Part shown: one piece after another, positions 32,714-40,159 of the stretch | Layout of the letters: each line of letters opens with the position of its first letter | Position numbering within the stretch: position 1 is the stretch's first letter | Source of the DNA: an uncultured Prevotellaceae bacterium | GTDB taxonomy: Bacteria; Bacteroidota; Bacteroidia; Bacteroidales; Bacteroidaceae | Assembly (NCBI GenBank): GCA_947166155.1 | Contig: CAMVDC010000001.1 | Span: forward strand, 1-61,465 | DNA length: 61,465 nucleotides | Direction of reading: 5' to 3' | Notes under the pieces: model-generated | What the model was told of the DNA's origin: nothing | What the model saw: the letters and a program-made list of their open reading frames with translations, nothing else | Database searches by the model: none | Program-made: the position numbers and the translations under genes

Positions 32714-33835
32714 ATGAAGATAGGGTTTGATGCTAAACGGCTGTTCTGCAACTTCACAGGACTGGGCAACCACAGCCGTACCACCATCGACATACTCGGA
32801 GCAGAATATCCCGAGACGCAGATGTATCTCTACACTCCGCGCCTCACGCTCAACCCTACTACACAACCCTACACCACACGTCGAAACTGCCACCTGCGCA
32901 CACCCCAGGGGATGGTGAAAGGCAGTTTGTGGCGCACGATGGCAGTGAGCCGCGAGGCACAGCGCGATGGCATAGACCTGTGGCACGGACTATCGAACGA
33001 ACTGCCCATGGGACTCAAGAGCCGACACATACCGTCGGTGGTGACCATACACGACGTGGCGTTCCACACGTTTCCCGACATGTATCACCGCCACGACCGC
33101 ATGATATACGACCTGAAATGGAGGTACGCATGCCGGAATGCCGACCAAATCATAGCCATAAGTCAGTGTACGGCTCGCGACATAGTGAAGTACTACGGAG
33201 TGGATGAGCGCAAATTGAATGTGGTGTACCAGCCCGTCAATTCAATCTACTACCAAGAGCCCACGACTCCCAACCGCAAACACCCTTACATGTTATATGT
33301 GGGGTCGGTCAACTCGAGGAAAAACCTCATGGGAGTGGTGCAGGCAATGGCCTCGATACCCGAGTCGGTACGCATACCCCTCGTGGTTGTAGGCGATGGC
33401 GGAGCATACAAGCGCCAGGTGATGGAATACGTGGAAAGTCATCGACTCACATCGATGGTGGAGTGGCGCACAGCAGCCAGCCACGACGAACTGCGAAGCC
33501 TCTACACCGATGCCACGCTGTTTGTCTATCCCTCGTTCTACGAAGGATTCGGACTGCCGGTGGTCGAAGCGTCGCTATGCAAATGCCCTGTGCTGACATC
33601 GAGCATAAGCAGCCTGCCCGAAGCCGCTGGACCTCATGCCGTGCTTGTCGACCCATACGACAACTCCGACATAGCTCGTGGCATGATGAAACTGCTGGAC
33701 AGCCATGAACTGCGCGAGCAGATAGGAGCCGACAGCCGCCGATATGCCATGCAGACATTCAGCCCGTCGGTGTTGGCTACCAACTTGATGAACGTATATC
33801 ACAAGACTATAAACAGAACGGATAACACTTTTTAA
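32714..33835 (+). CDS. glycosyltransferase family 4 (GT-B, GT1-Pfam type)
   Basis: 373 aa with the C-terminal EX7E-type motif FVYPSFYEGFGLPVVEA. Confidence 0.8.
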   Translation: MKIGFDAKRLFCNFTGLGNHSRTTIDILGAEYPETQMYLYTPRLTLNPTTQPYTTRRNCHLRTPQGMVKGSLWRTMAVSREAQRDGIDLWHGLSNELPMGLKSRHIPSVVTIHDVAFHTFPDMYHRHDRMIYDLKWRYACRNADQIIAISQCTARDIVKYYGVDERKLNVVYQPVNSIYYQEPTTPNRKHPYMLYVGSVNSRKNLMGVVQAMASIPESVRIPLVVVGDGGAYKRQVMEYVESHRLTSMVEWRTAASHDELRSLYTDATLFVYPSFYEGFGLPVVEASLCKCPVLTSSISSLPEAAGPHAVLVDPYDNSDIARGMMKLLDSHELREQIGADSRRYAMQTFSPSVLATNLMNVYHKTINRTDNTF

Positions 33836-33850
33836 ATACACTTATATATT

Positions 33851-35161
33851 ATGCCGAAAACCGTATATCTGGGAATGATAGGCGATATCATGCACCCAGG
33901 ACTTATAAACATAATCAACGAAGGAGCCAAGTATGGCGAGGTGATGATAGGATTGTTTACCGACCATGCTATAGCCAACCATCGCCGGCTGCCATACCTC
34001 AACTTCGAGCAGCGCAGGAACGTGATTGAAAACATACGTGGCGTGTCGCGTGTGGTGCCACAGGACGAGTGGAGCTATGTGGAAAACCTGAAGCGCTATC
34101 GTCCCGACTACATCATCCACGGCGACGACTGGCAGCAGGGTCCCGACCGCTACATACGCGACGAAGTGTTCAAGGTGATGGCGGCTCAGGGCGGCGAGGT
34201 GATAGAGATTCCATATACCAAGGGAATATCCGACTCGAGCCTTAAGGACGAGATGACATCCATCGGAGTGACTCCACAAACCCGACTCTCATCGCTCAGA
34301 CGCCTTATATCGGCCAAGCCTGTGGTGAGAATACTCGAATCGCACAGCGGACTGACCGGACTCATCATCGAACACACAACGGTGGATGTTGACGGACAGA
34401 CACGCGAGTTTGACGGCATGTGGGCATCGAGCCTCACCGACTCTACCAGCAAAGGTAAGCCAGACATCGAGGCGGTAGATCTCACAACACGTCTGCACGA
34501 CCTCAACGACACACTCGAAGTGACCACCAAGCCTGTCATCTTCGACGGCGACACTGGTGGCAAGGTGGAACATTTCGGTTTCACGGTGCGCACCCTGGAG
34601 CGACTCGGCATATCGGCCGTGATCATCGAAGACAAGGTGGGGCTGAAGCAAAACTCGCTCTTCGGCACCGATGCAGTGCAGACACAAGACACCATAGAGG
34701 GCTTCTCGGCCAAGATACGTGCAGGCAAGGATGCACAGATTACTCGCGACTTCATGATTATCGCGCGTTGTGAAAGCCTCATTGCAGGTAAACCGGTGGA
34801 CGATGCACTCGAACGCTGTCACGCATACGTTGAGGCAGGAGCCGACGGAATCATGATACACTCGAAGAATAAGAGCGGCGACGACATTCGCGAGTTCTGC
34901 ATCAGATTCCGACAGACCGATTCACACACACCGATAGTGGCTGTGCCTACGACCTACAACCAATTTACCGAGGAGCAACTGGCCGAATGGGGCATCAACA
35001 TCGTGATATATGCCAACCACATGCTGCGCTCGGCCTACCCTGCAATGGTGGAGTGTGCCAAGTCGATACTCACACACAGCCGCAGCCTCGAGGCATCCGA
35101 CAAATACTGTATGCCGATAAAAGAAATACTCAACCTCATACCAGGAACAATAAAGAAATGA
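33851..35161 (+). CDS. aepX: bifunctional cytidylyltransferase-like domain / phosphoenolpyruvate phosphomutase
   Basis: The N-terminal ~125 aa resemble the glycerol-3-phosphate cytidylyltransferase fold (YLGMIGDIMHPGLINII...IIHGDDW). The C-terminal ~300 aa carry PEP mutase motifs (ILESHSGLTGLI, MWASSLTDS, IIEDKVGLKQNSLFG). Its stop overlaps the next start (ATGA at 35158-35161). Confidence 0.85.
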   Translation: MPKTVYLGMIGDIMHPGLINIINEGAKYGEVMIGLFTDHAIANHRRLPYLNFEQRRNVIENIRGVSRVVPQDEWSYVENLKRYRPDYIIHGDDWQQGPDRYIRDEVFKVMAAQGGEVIEIPYTKGISDSSLKDEMTSIGVTPQTRLSSLRRLISAKPVVRILESHSGLTGLIIEHTTVDVDGQTREFDGMWASSLTDSTSKGKPDIEAVDLTTRLHDLNDTLEVTTKPVIFDGDTGGKVEHFGFTVRTLERLGISAVIIEDKVGLKQNSLFGTDAVQTQDTIEGFSAKIRAGKDAQITRDFMIIARCESLIAGKPVDDALERCHAYVEAGADGIMIHSKNKSGDDIREFCIRFRQTDSHTPIVAVPTTYNQFTEEQLAEWGINIVIYANHMLRSAYPAMVECAKSILTHSRSLEASDKYCMPIKEILNLIPGTIKK

Positions 35162-36285
35162 TAAGTCCACAATTCTTCATCGACGAACTGGGTCGGCACG
35201 GTATCGACTTCTATACCGGAGTGCCCGACTCCCTGCTCAAAAACATCTGTGCCTACATCACCGACACACTTCCCCACGACCACAACATCATAGCCGCCAA
35301 CGAAGGCGGAGCAATGGGCATTGCAGCCGGATACCATCTGGCTACAGGACGCATACCTGTGGTGTATATGCAGAACTCGGGCGAGGGAAACATCATAAAC
35401 CCCCTGGCATCGCTCACCGACAAGGAGGTGTACTGCATACCGGTGTTGTTGATAATCGGTTGGAGAGGCCGGCCTGGTGTTCACGACGAGCCCCAGCATG
35501 TGAAGCAAGGCAAGGTGACCACCGGACTGCTCAACACCATGGGGATAGACTACACGGTGCTGAGCAAAGACACCGACACTGCAGCCAAACAGATAAAGAC
35601 GGCCGTAGATTACATGCACCGCACCAACGAATGCTATGCCCTGGTGGTTGAGAAAGAGACATTCGAGGCCTATACATTGAGCAATACAAAAGCAACGATA
35701 CTCACCCTTGCTCGCGAAGAAGCGATAGAGAGTGTGGTGGAAACGCTCGAAGCCGATGCTGTGGTGGTATCTACTACCGGAATGATATCGAGAGAGTTGT
35801 TTGAGATACGTGAGCGCAGAGGACAAGACCACTCGCGCGACTTCCTGACAGTGGGCTCGATGGGGCATGCTTCGCAGATAGCACTGGGCATTGCATTACA
35901 ACAACCGCAGCGACCTGTGTATTGCTTCGACGGCGACGGTGCTGCAATAATGCACATGGGAGGCATGGCCATTGCTGCAAGCATGAAACCAAGCAACCTC
36001 ACACATATAGTATTCAACAACGGGGCTCACGACTCGGTAGGCGGACAGCCGACCGTGGGACTCGATATCGACCTGCCTGCCGTTGCAAAGGCTGTGGGCT
36101 ACAAGCATGTATATTCTGCCGACAACCTGACGGAGCTGACCGAAATACTCGGCAAGGCTAAAGGCGAGGAAGGACCGAAGCTGATACAGATATGTGTGAA
36201 GAAAGGCAACCGCAAAGACCTGGGTCGACCTACCACCACACCACAGCAGAACAAGGAGGCATTAATGAATTTCCTGAAAAGATGA
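35158..36285 (+). CDS. aepY: phosphonopyruvate decarboxylase (ThDP-dependent)
   Basis: MISPQFFIDELGRHGIDFYTGVPDSLLK N-terminus. ThDP-binding motif FDGDGAAIMHMGGMA...VFNNGAHDSVGGQPT. Sits directly after the PEP mutase, and its stop overlaps the next start (ATGA at 36282-36285). Confidence 0.85.
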   Translation: MISPQFFIDELGRHGIDFYTGVPDSLLKNICAYITDTLPHDHNIIAANEGGAMGIAAGYHLATGRIPVVYMQNSGEGNIINPLASLTDKEVYCIPVLLIIGWRGRPGVHDEPQHVKQGKVTTGLLNTMGIDYTVLSKDTDTAAKQIKTAVDYMHRTNECYALVVEKETFEAYTLSNTKATILTLAREEAIESVVETLEADAVVVSTTGMISRELFEIRERRGQDHSRDFLTVGSMGHASQIALGIALQQPQRPVYCFDGDGAAIMHMGGMAIAASMKPSNLTHIVFNNGAHDSVGGQPTVGLDIDLPAVAKAVGYKHVYSADNLTELTEILGKAKGEEGPKLIQICVKKGNRKDLGRPTTTPQQNKEALMNFLKR

Positions 36286-36995
36286 AGACAGCAGTAATCA
36301 TGGCCGCCGGCATGGGAACCCGCTTCGGCAAGATGACCGAAACCATGCCTAAGGGCTTTATTCCATACAAAGGAAAGGCGATGGTGGTGCGTAGCATAGA
36401 GACACTCATCGGTTGCGGCATCGAGCGCATCATTATCGGTACGGGCTACCAGCACGAGTGTTATGATGCGTTGAAGGAGCAATATCCGCAAATAGAGTGT
36501 GTGCTTTCGCCACGATATGCCGAGACCAACAGCATGTACACCCTATGGAACTGTCGCGAAGCAATAGGCAGCGACGACTTCCTGCTGCTTGAGTCCGACC
36601 TCGTGTTCGAGCCACGAGCCATCCGCGAACTCATCGATTGCGCTTACGAATCGGCTATGCTCATCACACCTGTCACCAAGTTTCAAGACCAATACTACGT
36701 GGAAATGAACTCGAAGTGCGAACTGGTAGCATGTTCGACCAACGAGCACGACATACATCCGCAAGGCGAATTGGTGGGCATACACAAGTTGAGCAACAAG
36801 TTCTACAAGACATGTATCGACGACTATGCAACCAAGGTAGAAGCACAGCCAAAGCTGGGATATGAATACCAGCTGCTCCATACATCCAGGCACTTGATGC
36901 CGATGAATGTGTTGAGGCTCGAAGGACTGCAATGGTATGAAATCGACGATATCGACGACCTCACATTTGCCGAGCAACATGTGAAGATAGAATGA
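36282..36995 (+). CDS. LicC-like nucleotidyltransferase (candidate phosphonate-specific cytidylyltransferase, PntC-like)
   Basis: ATG 36282 (the track ORF starts 30 codons earlier, inside aepY). MKTAVIMAAGMGTRFGKMTETMPKGFIP is the NTP-transferase G-loop. The C-terminal WYEIDDIDDLTFAE matches the LicC family ending. Confidence 0.75.
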   Translation: MKTAVIMAAGMGTRFGKMTETMPKGFIPYKGKAMVVRSIETLIGCGIERIIIGTGYQHECYDALKEQYPQIECVLSPRYAETNSMYTLWNCREAIGSDDFLLLESDLVFEPRAIRELIDCAYESAMLITPVTKFQDQYYVEMNSKCELVACSTNEHDIHPQGELVGIHKLSNKFYKTCIDDYATKVEAQPKLGYEYQLLHTSRHLMPMNVLRLEGLQWYEIDDIDDLTFAEQHVKIE

Positions 36996-37062
36996 ATAAT
37001 TAATAATTAATAATGAATAGCGGATGCTACGTTAATTAATAATGAATAGCGGATGCTTGAGC
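36991..37062 (+). repeat. two copies of the AATAATGAATAGCGGATGCT word (same family and orientation as 38216-38415)
   Basis: AATGAATAATTAATAATTAATAATGAATAGCGGATGCTACG is followed by TTAATTAATAATGAATAGCGGATGCTTGAGC, directly after the nucleotidyltransferase stop and 42 nt before aepZ. Confidence 0.85.
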
Positions 37063-37103
37063 AATAACAATAATATAAAATATATAATTAATAATATATA
37101 ATT

Positions 37104-38219
37104 ATGACTACACCCATAATTCCTACAATAAAGCGAAATGTGCTGCTCAACCCGGGTCCGGCCACAACGACCGACACTGTGAAGATGGCACAAGTGGTGC
37201 CCGACATCTGTCCGCGCGAAAAGGAATTTGCAGGCCTAATGAAAGGTTTGCGTTCCGACTTGCTGCGCGTGGCACACGCACCGGCCGACCAATTCACTGC
37301 AGTGCTTTTCTGCGGTTCGGGCACTATAAACATCGATATATGTATCAACTCGTTGCTGCCCGAAGGCAAGAAGATTCTGGTGGTGAACAACGGTGCTTAC
37401 AACAGCCGCGCCGTCGAGGTGTGCCAGATGTATCACTTGCCATATATCGACCTGAAGTCGAGTGTGTTTGAGCGGCCTAACCTTGCCGACATAGAACGTA
37501 CGCTCAACGAAAACCCCGATGTGGCTGTGGTGTATTGCTGCCACCACGAGACAGGCACAGGCGTTCTCAACCCCATTCGCGAGATTGGAGCCATGGCACA
37601 TCGGCACGGAGCCATTTTCATAAGCGACACCACATCGACCCTTGGCATGATACCGTTCGACATGGTTGAAGATAATGTCGATTTCTGCATGGCATCAGCA
37701 CAGAAAGGGCTCATGGCCATGTCGGGCTTGTCGTTCATCATTGGCAGGAAAGACATCATCGAAGCATCGAAACACTATCCGACACGCTCATACTACTGCA
37801 ACCTATATATGCAGTACGATTACTTCGAGCGTACCGGCGAGATGCATTTCACCCCACCCGTTCAGACCATCTATGCCACAATCCAGGCACTCAAAGAGTA
37901 TTTTGCCGAGGGCGAGGAAGCCAAGTTTGCCCGCCACCGCCGAGTGTATGAAGCCATACGCCGCGGAGTAGCACGCCTCGGCCTCGAGACAGTCATCGAC
38001 CCCGCCATCGAGTCAGGTCTTGTGGTGTCGGTGAAATACCCCGACGACCCACATTTCTCGTTCGAGCGTGTACACGACTACTGCTACGAACGCGGATTCA
38101 CCATCTATCCTGGCAAGATAAGCACCACCAACACCTTCCGCCTCTGTGCGCTCGGAACCATCGATGTGCAGGACATCGAAGACTTCTTCGTGGTATTTGA
38201 ACAGGCACTGAGGAGTTAA
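37104..38219 (+). CDS. aepZ: 2-aminoethylphosphonate:pyruvate aminotransferase (class V aminotransferase)
   Basis: LLNPGPATTTDTVKMAQVVPDICPREKEF N-terminus and the PLP-lysine region MASAQKGLMAMSGLSF. Located inside the phosphonate gene cluster. Confidence 0.8.
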   Translation: MTTPIIPTIKRNVLLNPGPATTTDTVKMAQVVPDICPREKEFAGLMKGLRSDLLRVAHAPADQFTAVLFCGSGTINIDICINSLLPEGKKILVVNNGAYNSRAVEVCQMYHLPYIDLKSSVFERPNLADIERTLNENPDVAVVYCCHHETGTGVLNPIREIGAMAHRHGAIFISDTTSTLGMIPFDMVEDNVDFCMASAQKGLMAMSGLSFIIGRKDIIEASKHYPTRSYYCNLYMQYDYFERTGEMHFTPPVQTIYATIQALKEYFAEGEEAKFARHRRVYEAIRRGVARLGLETVIDPAIESGLVVSVKYPDDPHFSFERVHDYCYERGFTIYPGKISTTNTFRLCALGTIDVQDIEDFFVVFEQALRS

Positions 38220-38415
38220 TGAATAATTAATAATAATGAATAGCGGATGCTCTTTGTTAATGAATAATTAATAATGAATAGCGGATGCTCTTTGTTAATG
38301 AATAATTAATAATGAATAGCGGATGCTTTTTGTTAATGAATAATTAATAATGAATAGCTGAAGCTCTTTGTTAATGAATAATTAATAGCGGATGCTTGGT
38401 GCACAGCGGATGCTA
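38216..38415 (+). repeat. tandem repeat, 38-bp unit TTAATGAATAATTAATAATGAATAGCGGATGCTCTTTG, ~5 copies
   Basis: Units at 38216 (41 bp), 38257, 38295 and 38333, with a degenerate copy at 38371. The array starts at the aepZ stop codon and ends 28 nt before the licD start. Confidence 0.92.
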
Positions 38416-38442
38416 CTTCAATCCTTCAATTATTCAATATAA

Positions 38443-39312
38443 ATGGAGAAAACAGTAATTCCAGCAGGTTTCCTCGACGAGGAGACGAGGAGCGGATATG
38501 TAGTCACAGCCGACATGAAGCGTGTTTGGTCGGTTCAGTTGGAGATGGTTGAGGCATTGCTCGACATCTGTCAGCGCCACAACCTGCGCATTTGGGCCGA
38601 TGCGGGTACATTGCTCGGAGTCATACGTCATGGTGGATATATTCCTTGGGACGACGATATCGACATGGTGATGCCTCGTGAGGACTACGACCGTTTGCAG
38701 CAGATAGCGCCGCATGAGTTGGCCGAGCCTCTCTTCTTCCAAACCATGCACACCGACCCTGGTTACACACACCGTCATGCACAGATTCGCAACTCCAACA
38801 CCGCGGCCATAGGTCTGAACCAGAAGTCATATACTTGTAATTGCGGCATATTCATCGACATCTTTCCACTTGAATACATGCCGGCCAGCCCCCGTCACTT
38901 CAAGCGCCACTACAATCGCATCACCCGCCTGAAGCAACATATACGTCTCATTCAGCGACTGCTCTTGCCGCTGCCCCGGGGCATATACATGTATTGCCGG
39001 AATCACACCACATGCCTGTCCGACGAACGTCTGTTCGACCAGTACGAGGACCTGTTGCGCAGTGTGAAGCGCAGCGACGCATCGACATGGGTCGATATCA
39101 CGTTCAACCACACATCGCCGCAACGCCCTATAGTGCTATACGAGCAGACGCTGTGGATGGATTTCGAGTACCTGAAGATGCCCGTGCCTGCCGGCTACGA
39201 TGCCATTCTCACCACCCATTTCGGCGATTATATGACTCCGGTCAAGTCGCCTTCATACCATGGTACATTGATTTACGATACCGAACATAGTTATAAGGAG
39301 ATACTGAAATAA
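38443..39312 (+). CDS. licD: LicD-family phosphotransferase (copy 1)
   Basis: LRIWADAGTLLGVIRHGGYIPWDDDIDMVMPREDYDRL and IDIFPLE are LicD signature blocks. Confidence 0.8.
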   Translation: MEKTVIPAGFLDEETRSGYVVTADMKRVWSVQLEMVEALLDICQRHNLRIWADAGTLLGVIRHGGYIPWDDDIDMVMPREDYDRLQQIAPHELAEPLFFQTMHTDPGYTHRHAQIRNSNTAAIGLNQKSYTCNCGIFIDIFPLEYMPASPRHFKRHYNRITRLKQHIRLIQRLLLPLPRGIYMYCRNHTTCLSDERLFDQYEDLLRSVKRSDASTWVDITFNHTSPQRPIVLYEQTLWMDFEYLKMPVPAGYDAILTTHFGDYMTPVKSPSYHGTLIYDTEHSYKEILK

Positions 39313-39331
39313 GGAGTTGACATTTTTCATT

Positions 39332-40159
39332 ATGGCAGACTACGACATACACATGCTGCATGAGCGCATACTGAGAATCATGGACGTCATTCACACGGTG
39401 TGCGAGGCTCATGGCCTTCGCTACTATCTGTGGGCAGGCACCATGTTGGGAGCCGTGCGCCATGGCGGCTTCATTCCTTGGGACGATGATGCCGACATAG
39501 CTATGCCTCGCCACGACTACGACTTGCTTGTGGCGAATGCCGAGCAGTGGTTTCCTGCTCCTTTCGAGCTCACATCCATTGAGAAGAGCACGCGCTTCAC
39601 CGGCACTTATGCAAAAATAGTAGATGCCAGTACCACCATCGTCGAGCGCTACGACTTCAATTCGGTGGGGGGCATATATGTCGACCTCTTTCCGCTCGAC
39701 GGCATGAGCAGCAATCCTGTTTGCGCCCGAAGCCATGTGACGCGTTATTCCGTCTTGCGCCAGATGGCATACTTCTGCAACCGCAATCCATATAAGCATG
39801 GTCGTGGACCCTCGTCGTGGCTGCCGCTGTTGATTCAGCGATGCTACAGCAACTACGACTTGCAGTCGAAGGCCATATCGCTGATGCGGCATTATGATTA
39901 CGACAGTCACGACATGATATGCGACTACGACTTTGGTTGTCATGGCATTATGCCAAAGCAGTATGCCGGACGCCCCACACCCATAGGCTTTGAGGGCCAC
40001 ACGTTTCTTGGGGTGGAGAATGCCCACGACTACCTCACCCATCTGTATGGCGACTACATGCAGCTGCCGCCCATTGAGCAGCGTCGTCAGCACAATTTCT
40101 ATTATCTCAACTACGACCTCCCCTTCCGTCAGTATGTCGACGAGCGTAAGTTTGTGTAA
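39332..40159 (+). CDS. licD: LicD-family phosphotransferase (copy 2)
   Basis: ATG 39332 (the track uses TTG 39317). LRYYLWAGTMLGAVRHGGFIPWDDDADIAMPRHDYDLL and VDLFPLD. Paralogue of the preceding gene. Its 3' end overlaps the convergent GT4 gene by 31 nt. Confidence 0.8.
   Translation: MADYDIHMLHERILRIMDVIHTVCEAHGLRYYLWAGTMLGAVRHGGFIPWDDDADIAMPRHDYDLLVANAEQWFPAPFELTSIEKSTRFTGTYAKIVDASTTIVERYDFNSVGGIYVDLFPLDGMSSNPVCARSHVTRYSVLRQMAYFCNRNPYKHGRGPSSWLPLLIQRCYSNYDLQSKAISLMRHYDYDSHDMICDYDFGCHGIMPKQYAGRPTPIGFEGHTFLGVENAHDYLTHLYGDYMQLPPIEQRRQHNFYYLNYDLPFRQYVDERKFV

Follow-up and report, generated by a model that had tools for sequence, protein, structure and literature searches.

A cytidylyltransferase-fold domain lacking the second HxGH histidine, fused to the PEP mutase of a Prevotellaceae phosphonate operon that also encodes PntC

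The 61,465-nucleotide stretch of DNA analysed here, called the window in what follows, comes from an uncultured Prevotellaceae bacterium (contig CAMVDC010000001.1 of assembly GCA_947166155.1, positions 1 to 61,465) and contains an operon for phosphonate biosynthesis in which two nucleotidyltransferase (NTase) folds are found together. One is a separate LicC-like enzyme, PntC, and the other a cytidylyltransferase (CyTase)-like domain that forms the N-terminus of the phosphoenolpyruvate (PEP) mutase, Ppm. In the fused domain, the second histidine of the HxGH signature is replaced by leucine, and this histidine is missing from a whole clade of related fusions, in which purifying selection constrains the domain to the same degree as Ppm and which almost always occur together with a second NTase. 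The domain is probably not the supplier of the CMP-phosphonate, and we see about an even chance that it has been repurposed as a nucleotide- or phosphonate-binding module of Ppm.

The fused domain and its active-site motifs

The fusion gene (33851-35161; all window features located below lie on the + strand) encodes 436 aa, in which PF01467 (CTP_transf_like) covers residues 12-107 and PEP_mutase residues 149-407. Its N-terminal part, residues 1-140 (33851..34270), scores 37.7 bits against PF01467 (gathering threshold, 21) and matches the CyTase domain of Fom1 (PDB 5x3d) with an E-value of 9e-45 and about 50% identity. Its AF2 model (pLDDT 91.9) superposes on 5x3d with a target TM of 0.97 and an rmsd of 0.9 Å, followed in the Foldseek ranking by GCT, CCT and ECT (1coz: E 1e-10, target TM 0.81). 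Because of this sequence match and of the superposition of the model, the nucleotidyltransferase fold is beyond doubt, and the fused cytidylyltransferase-like domain announced in the preliminary description is indeed present, although with a length of about 140 aa instead of about 125 aa. The domain reaches 53.7 bits with TIGR01518, the TagD/GCT equivalog, whose cut-off is 165.4.

The motifs of the TagD/GCT types, with which it had been proposed to align the domain, are only partly kept. The HPGL motif (H15, L18; 33893-33904) lies in GDIMHPGLINII, residues 11-22 of the fusion protein, and aligns with HPGH in Fom1, HWGH in GCT and HYGH in ECT; of the two histidines of the HxGH superfamily, the first is thus present and the second is, as initially remarked, replaced by leucine. 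The catalytic-Lys loop reads H44-R45-R46 (33980..33997) where the HxGH consensus is Y44-K45-R46, and it aligns with K44/K46 of GCT in a register that is uncertain by one residue. K45 is found in 101/102 HxGH-type domains, against 65 Lys and 20 Arg in the clade without the second His (hereafter the non-His clade). A putative head-group subsite, QDEWSY (E73-W74-S75; 34061..34078), replaces the T-L-D of the HxGH types, Fom1 included. Finally, the equivalent of the RTEGISTT (RTxGISTT) motif is YTKGISDS (34214..34237), in which T123, G125 and S127 are kept and Asp128 follows GIS directly, at the first Ser/Thr position, where Fom1-type domains have Ser or Thr in 93/102 cases.

Several of these positions have been probed in other enzymes. 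In CaFADS, the FAD synthetase of Corynebacterium, variants of the second HxGH His, H31A/D, have adenylyl transfer below detection with ATP:Mg binding in the wild-type range, and S164D is inactive (PMC3509593). In the Plasmodium enzyme PfCCT, the kcat of T761A is about 1400-fold lower, the loop Lys is essential and the Trp of the head-group subsite binds ammonium by cation-pi interaction (PMC6060094). Both CaFADS S164 and PfCCT T761 are placed at Asp128 of the window by alignment. As some members of the superfamily function with motif variants (TIGN in TrpRS; PPAT without the first His), inactivity of the fused domain is not provable from sequence alone.

The non-His clade and its genomic context

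With the fusion protein, 80 genomic loci were recovered whose fusions are 79-99% identical, mostly from Prevotellaceae, Bacteroidaceae and Fibrobacter with a few other bins; locus L001 is 99% identical to the window, which comes from a rumen Prevotellaceae metagenome-assembled genome (MAG). Position 18 is never His (0/80; the motif is HPGL in 71, HPGY in 8 and HHGY in 1), and all six Leu codons are used for Leu18 across the loci, so that HPGL is neither a one-off mutation nor a sequencing error. A library-wide search with the fused domain gave 150 representatives, most of them HxGH; those more than about 54% identical to the window domain have L or I at position 18, the Y forms coming from the genomic loci. 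The HxGH group, defined by His18, consists of 102 representative domains, and no other residue occurs at this position outside the non-His groups. The tree groups every L and Y row, together with three I rows, in a single clade (SH-aLRT 97) that is nested among HxGH types and within which HPGI forms are basal and HPGY forms, from Bacteroides, are derived. A second, independent loss of the His was considered for P0189/P0240 (I18, E/D73, S75); no usable context was recovered for them, and the tree gives them no firm placement.

When 85 sequences of the non-His clade are compared with the 102 HxGH-type domains, further positions are seen to have changed with the second His. Y44 has become H (82/85), T73 E/D (85/85), L74 W (83/85), D75 S (83/85) and Q99 D/E (74/85; D in the window), whereas W113, near-invariant in the HxGH types, is variable (Q in the window), the near-invariant K45 is K or R (R in the window) and S128 is variable (S42, A30, D9; Asp in the window). 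At every changed position, Fom1 has the HxGH-type residue. The clade keeps D12, H15, G17, N20, R46, R55, Q71, Y76, H90, G91, D93, W94, R103, E119, Y122 and T123, and some of these residues are also common to GCT or to the wider superfamily.

The dN/dS ratio of the N-domain, 0.02-0.06, is the same as that of the Ppm domain (Nei-Gojobori, 78 gap-free genes) and most family-conserved positions are kept; the domain is therefore not decaying, and a decaying relic is ruled out. The amino-acid divergence of the N-domain, apparently 1.7-fold faster, is only about 1.3-fold faster once Ppm divergence is equalised, the N-domain/Ppm ratio then being 1.26-1.48 in non-His fusions vs 1.11-1.16 in HxGH fusions. 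Between the two types, the divergence of the N-domain (0.485) is disproportionate to that of Ppm (0.344), which suggests that change was concentrated in a burst on the stem. One genome of the window's family, G1036, has a Ppm domain 80% identical to that of the window with an HTGH N-domain that is only 50% identical.

The genomic contexts of the two types of fusions are also different. For the HxGH type, metagenome contigs were scanned with an alignment of HxGH-type true Ppm fusions, which gave 80 loci, all HxGH; this sample has one subfamily at its centre and includes many short contigs. The phosphonopyruvate decarboxylase Ppd is present in 73-74/80 of these loci and directly followed by an iron alcohol dehydrogenase (Fe-ADH) in 62-65/80, an arrangement corresponding to the hydroxyethylphosphonate (HEP) branch, as in fosfomycin, and the transferases are TagF-like or LicD. 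The 2-aminoethylphosphonate (AEP) aminotransferase AEPT is beside none of them (0/80 loci), any GT-A-fold NTase is found in 5/80 (4/26 among those with at least 5 kb downstream), and PntC is absent also in other HxGH subfamilies, each of them sampled singly.

Conversely, no Fe-ADH stands beside a non-His fusion (0/80 loci). PntC is found in 48/80 loci, most of which also have AEPT, in contexts that are either of glycan type or of lipid type with a CDP-alcohol phosphatidyltransferase, and 22/80 loci carry a transaminase-free cassette composed of Ppd, a metallophosphoesterase, an SDR, DUF6564 and a saccharopine-DH-like protein. As DUF6564 and PntC fall in the same GT-A NTase family by iterated profile, they can be counted together: one or the other is present in 71/80 non-His loci and in 60/62 where the flanks are adequate, against the 5/80 of the HxGH fusions, which gives, for these samples, the co-occurrence of fused and separate NTases that the preliminary description had proposed to survey. 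The basal HPGI representative adjoins DUF6564 in the same type of cassette. Even samples of 400 genomes at phylum and order level contained almost only HxGH-type domains, and a family-level sample was used for the non-His clade: 17 high-quality genomes of the window's family and one from another family have the non-His domain, and a PntC or DUF6564 homologue is found in 18/18 of them, on the same contig within about 5 kb in 16. Because the non-His clade has a single origin, this association represents one or two evolutionary events, not 80, and the Fisher p value exaggerates its weight.

The transaminase-free cassette, in which the SDR is an epimerase/dehydratase and near which LicD genes are usually found, occurs at L006:11322-16116, L003, L004, L008, L010, L012, L016-L018, L020 and L021, and further at L038, L040, L049, L052, L054, L055, L059, L061, L066, L067, L078 and L161; our literature searches returned no paper mentioning DUF6564. 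The CyTase-Ppm proteins of Fibrobacter (Fibrobacterota) and of Prevotellaceae/Bacteroidaceae are about 86% identical (L003-L022 vs window 33851-35161), and bins assigned to Clostridia, Myxococcota or Planctomycetota contain a few copies. Recent transfer between phyla in the rumen and gut is the likely origin of this pattern, although some cases may be binning errors.

Eight genomes of the window's family encode triple fusions (about 680 aa) in which a PntC-like domain precedes CyTase and Ppm, in clusters with Ppd, Fe-ADH and LicD (L169:4509-6554, L170:4584-6623, L173-L178); such fusions represent 2.8% of Ppm enzymes (Rice et al., 2019; PMC6697681). The PntC-like domain keeps the G-loop and the Lys. 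In the CyTase domain (7/7 aligned), HSGH or HFGH and Y44-K45 are kept, and GISST is replaced by an SDPKY-like sequence with a 4-residue insertion. This second lineage is consistent with the first: one of the two signature motifs of CyTase is eroded in both lineages in which a GT-A NTase is found with it, lone CyTases keeping both motifs.

A few non-His fusions are without adjacent PntC. The lipid-type cluster L033 and its near-twin L039 show a clean loss of PntC; the genome of L039 has a 71% identical PntC elsewhere, and none was found in the 2.1-Mb MAG of L033. L035 and L056 also have PntC elsewhere in the genome. In Alistipes, L080 comprises the HPGL fusion, Ppd, AEPT, an octopine-DH-like gene, a flippase and a TagF-like transferase, and no PntC was found there, over the 298 bp left before the contig ends, or elsewhere in the genome assembly. 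If such clusters are taken as proof of activity of a lone non-His domain, only L080 remains, and it is suggestive, not decisive. A rule of one NTase per LicD was also considered and is ruled out by a LicD count of 0-4 among the loci with both NTases.

Possible functions of the fused domain

In the reading that we favour, the ancestor of the fused domain would be a Fom1-type HEP cytidylyltransferase domain, which Ppm would have brought into amine-type clusters; catalysis would there have passed to the GT-A enzyme, and the domain would then have been kept as a part of Ppm that binds a nucleotide, a phosphonate or both and serves in regulation or as a scaffold, for instance by sensing CTP or CMP-AEP at the committed step. 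That the domain probably does not supply the CMP-phosphonate is suggested by the loss of the phosphate-contacting His and the hits at K45 and S128 in a site that is otherwise conserved, together with a near-obligate second NTase in three pathway types. Loss of cytidylyl transfer and a binding role are what we infer from the observed gene identities, the motif change, its fixation, the selection and the dichotomy of contexts. Among the three options offered by the preliminary description (another substrate, a regulatory or channelling role, catalytic degeneracy), the comparative pattern favours a changed role, and degeneracy, understood as decay, is wrong in view of the dN/dS.

The more precise possibility that the domain binds CTP or CMP-AEP and allosterically sets the activity of PEP mutase, as a pseudoenzyme feedback module, is rather unlikely to be right in this exact form. 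Its triphosphate site would be less positive, owing to the change of His to Leu and, in the window's subgroup, of Ser to Asp, and its head-group pocket would be acidic and aromatic. Residues E73, W74, D99 and H44 would fit a pocket for an ammonium-bearing phosphonate, as could be found in a CMP-AEP/CTP sensor or in a non-canonical AEP cytidylyltransferase.

Several points weigh against the repurposing of the domain into a binding module. A dN/dS of about 0.02 and a newly conserved pocket would equally fit an active enzyme of changed mechanism or substrate: E73, W74 and D99 are reminiscent of the subsite by which choline and ethanolamine enzymes bind the cationic head group, which would suit AEP, and the new conserved His, H44, could compensate for H18. 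Furthermore, two clusters are without PntC, L033 and L080, and the single origin of the non-His clade reduces the association with context to one event and the triple-fusion case. Finally, the HxGH sample used for comparison is centred on one subfamily, and only alignments were used to place residues with respect to the ligand.

It is possible, if doubtful, that the domain is an active, non-canonical cytidylyltransferase re-tuned from HEP to an amine phosphonate (AEP or a derivative), working in parallel to PntC and feeding for example one of the two LicD enzymes, whose genes lie downstream in the window, or a second acceptor. The strength of purifying selection, the retention of conserved residues from D12 to T123 and the conservation of the new residues at positions 44, 73, 74 and 99 would all agree with such an enzyme, as would a Trp comparable to that of the PfCCT head-group subsite, and L033 and L080, which have a CMP-dependent transferase without PntC having been found, keep this explanation alive. 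However, Leu or Ile cannot stand in for a phosphate-contacting His, the equivalents in CaFADS being dead, and the window has Asp128 at a Ser/Thr position essential in CaFADS and PfCCT as well as Arg at position 45, otherwise an invariant Lys. PntC is by itself competent for the cytidylylation of AEP (PMC6697681), and a parallel role leaves unexplained the presence of a separate NTase in 60/62 loci, across phyla and in three pathway types. Moreover, the number of LicD genes (0-4) does not track the two NTases, the MAG of L033 is small and its near-twin has PntC elsewhere.

A purely architectural role, as a module for oligomerisation or stability or as a spacer of Ppm that binds no ligand and is left from the HEP-type ancestor, appears improbable. 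GCT-type domains are dimeric and Ppm is oligomeric, the triple fusions retain an eroded CyTase between their PntC-like and Ppm domains, and the N-domain diverges slightly faster relative to Ppm than in the HxGH types, all of which would agree with such a role; but family-conserved residues are near-invariant and the replaced pocket residues are conserved too, and a mere scaffold would need neither. As for simple redundancy, in which a canonical active site would duplicate PntC, the operon does contain both folds, and each of the two families has phosphonate cytidylyltransferases among its members. The intact active site that the preliminary description had set against its own proposal does not exist, however, since no member of the clade has the second His, which excludes plain redundancy at the sequence level; with seven other Fom1-type conserved positions changed and no HxGH-type fusion accompanied by AEPT (0/80), we regard this explanation as extremely improbable.

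The operon and known phosphonate systems

The fusion gene belongs to a co-directional block of seven genes (32714-40159), namely GT4, CyTase-Ppm, Ppd, the LicC-like PntC, AEPT and two LicD, with convergent GT4 and GT2 genes downstream. The first gene of the block encodes a GT4 glycosyltransferase (32714..33835; PF00534/PF13439), and a GT4 52-62% identical to it is found directly 5' of the fusion gene in the closest relatives. The PEP mutase domain, residues 149-436 (34295..35161), scores 407.5 bits with TIGR02320 (cut-off 319.55), has the catalytic motif EDKxxxxxNS as EDKVGLKQNS (residues 260-269; 34628-34657) and is the sole Ppm of its genome. It is followed by Ppd/AepY (35158..36285; TIGR03297, 514 bits vs 312.5), by PntC (36282..36995; 237 aa), which is the separate LicC-like enzyme correctly located between decarboxylase and transaminase by the preliminary description, and by AEPT/AepZ (37104..38219; TIGR03301, 458.6 bits vs 360.8). 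The two LicD-family phosphotransferases (PF04991) lie at 38443..39312 (E 5e-39) and 39317..40159 (E 8e-40); the ORF of the latter begins at TTG, its true start being uncertain, and its 3' end overlaps that of the convergent GT4 by 31 nt (40129-40159).

The ATGA overlaps initially described between Ppm stop and Ppd start (35158-35161) and between Ppd stop and PntC start (36282-36285) are both present. They are confined to the closest relatives, other loci having gaps of 5-50 nt, and are ordinary translational coupling. The only sizeable intergenic gaps of the operon flank the AEPT gene, which has AT-rich repeats on both sides (window 36991-37104 and 38215-38387), short 7- and 14-bp repeats upstream and a 38-bp tandem array of 4.5 copies with 94% matches from its stop codon.

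With Ppm, Ppd, AEPT, an NTase and LicD-type transferases in one neighbourhood together with glycan genes, the locus has the composition of a phosphonyl-tailoring (Pnt) cluster. Its LicC-like protein matches the PntC domain of Treponema denticola Tde1415 (PDB 6pd1) over residues 2-233 (E 3.3e-40), and carries the G-loop AAGMGTRFG (36303-36329) and WYEIDDIDD (36933-36959) of the preliminary description. K24, E104 and E195 align with K25, E104 and E196 of Tde-PntC, so that the LicC/GT-A NTase domain, the G-loop, the Lys and a pair of Glu, not Asp, are all found; in the CMP-AEP complex of Tde1415 both Glu face the AEP amine, and the phosphocholine-specific LicC has Asp there. These residues and the context suggest a preference for AEP over phosphocholine, and the window PntC most likely makes CMP-AEP.

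These genes thus form the core of an operon for phosphonyl tailoring, whose pathway we regard as securely assigned. Judging from family assignments, Ppm would convert PEP to phosphonopyruvate, which Ppd would decarboxylate to phosphonoacetaldehyde, pulling the Ppm reaction forward; AEP would then be formed by AEPT and converted with CTP to CMP-AEP by PntC, before the two LicD enzymes would move the phosphonyl group onto a glycan made by the flanking glycosyltransferases.

Other arrangements are observed among the loci. A phosphonolipid-type variant (L028, L031, L033, L036, L037, L039, L071-L077) has CDP-alcohol phosphatidyltransferase-family and LPG_synthase_TM genes before or after AEPT, with a PAP2 gene in addition in L028, L031, L033 and L039. 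Opine-type enzymes are found beside the phosphonate core at L080:3926-7726, L035:1657-2631, L019:14329-15288 and L172:9813-10835: in the Alistipes cluster L080, an octopine/nopaline-DH-like gene follows AEPT, and in the others ornithine-cyclodeaminase/mu-crystallin genes stand directly after Ppm, without Ppd, or after PntC-AEPT, an arrangement hinting at products that are N-alkylated or of phosphonoalanine type. Many metagenomic HxGH CyTase fusions (P0149, P0150, P0146, P0159, P0160, P0209, P0227, P0196) have a PEP_mutase-superfamily domain without EDKxxxxxNS and with a weaker PF13714 score, and in P0154 the partner of the CyTase domain is a phosphopantetheine-binding domain. The range of partners is wider than RefSeq suggested.

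The presence of two NTases in one phosphonate cluster, the PF01467-Ppm fusions and PntC are already published (PMC6697681, PMC8942020). The fusions represent 23.6% of Ppm enzymes, CMP-AEP is the product of PntC, and a Ppm-fused and a separate NTase were already stated to occur in one cluster (Rice et al., 2019; PMC6697681), in agreement with what the preliminary description had taken as established. In full-text literature searches, we found nothing on a clade-wide loss of the second His, on its coupling to the AEP/DUF6564 vs HEP branch or on complementary motif erosion in triple fusions, and nothing on DUF6564, CMP-AEP or PntC beyond Rice et al. (2019) and Li & Horsman (2022). Roughly one in four known PEP mutases has a fused domain of this kind, which the analogy with Fom1 generally leads to be taken for a working cytidylyltransferase. 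If the gut and rumen clade no longer has this activity, many annotations and pathway predictions for surface phosphonates of Bacteroides, Prevotella and Fibrobacter would need correcting, and the recurrent puzzle of two NTases in phosphonate clusters would get a concrete, testable answer; HxGH vs HPG[L/I/Y] could then serve as a simple marker separating HEP-type clusters from AEP-type and other amine-type ones. A regulatory role at the first, PEP-consuming step would give phosphonate biosynthesis a control point, the first to be described, and a sensor would make it a feedback module common to several phosphonate pathways of gut and rumen bacteria.

The study of Rice et al. (2019), unlike ours, did not look at the catalytic motifs of the fused PF01467 domain, nor did it split it into HxGH and non-His types or link these to HEP and AEP. 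Among known systems, the best match in both sequence and fold is Fom1 of Streptomyces wedmorensis, from fosfomycin biosynthesis, which like the window protein has an N-terminal PF01467 domain followed by Ppm, and whose CyTase domain structure, 5x3d, contains HEP-CMP. It differs from the window in having HPGH, Y44-K45, T73-L74-D75, Q99, W113 and GISST where the window has HPGL, H44-R45, E73-W74-S75, D99, Q113 and GISDS. Furthermore, Fom1 activates HEP made by Fe-ADH, whereas the window cluster, without Fe-ADH, is predicted from its gene families to make AEP, and Fom1-like HxGH fusions are the sole NTase of their clusters, whereas the window has PntC besides. The triple fusions resemble the window in that both NTase folds are tied to one Ppm in the same bacterial family, but they have both domains in the fusion, stand in HEP-type clusters with Fe-ADH and keep HxGH intact, GISST being the motif lost.

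With GCT/TagD, CCT and ECT, the fused domain shares the Rossmann-like fold, the first His, HGDDW, W74 and the T-x-G-I-S core, but it lacks their second His and has Asp for the first Thr of RTEGISTT; a Tyr in place of the Arg of this motif is common to the window and Fom1. Finally, the Pnt clusters with PntC of Treponema denticola (Tde1415), Atopobium rimae, Olsenella uli and Bacteroides fragilis (aepX-aepY-aepZ/PntC; PMC6697681) follow the same Ppm-Ppd-AEPT-PntC-LicD logic as the window, with the same AEP-contacting Lys and Glu residues.

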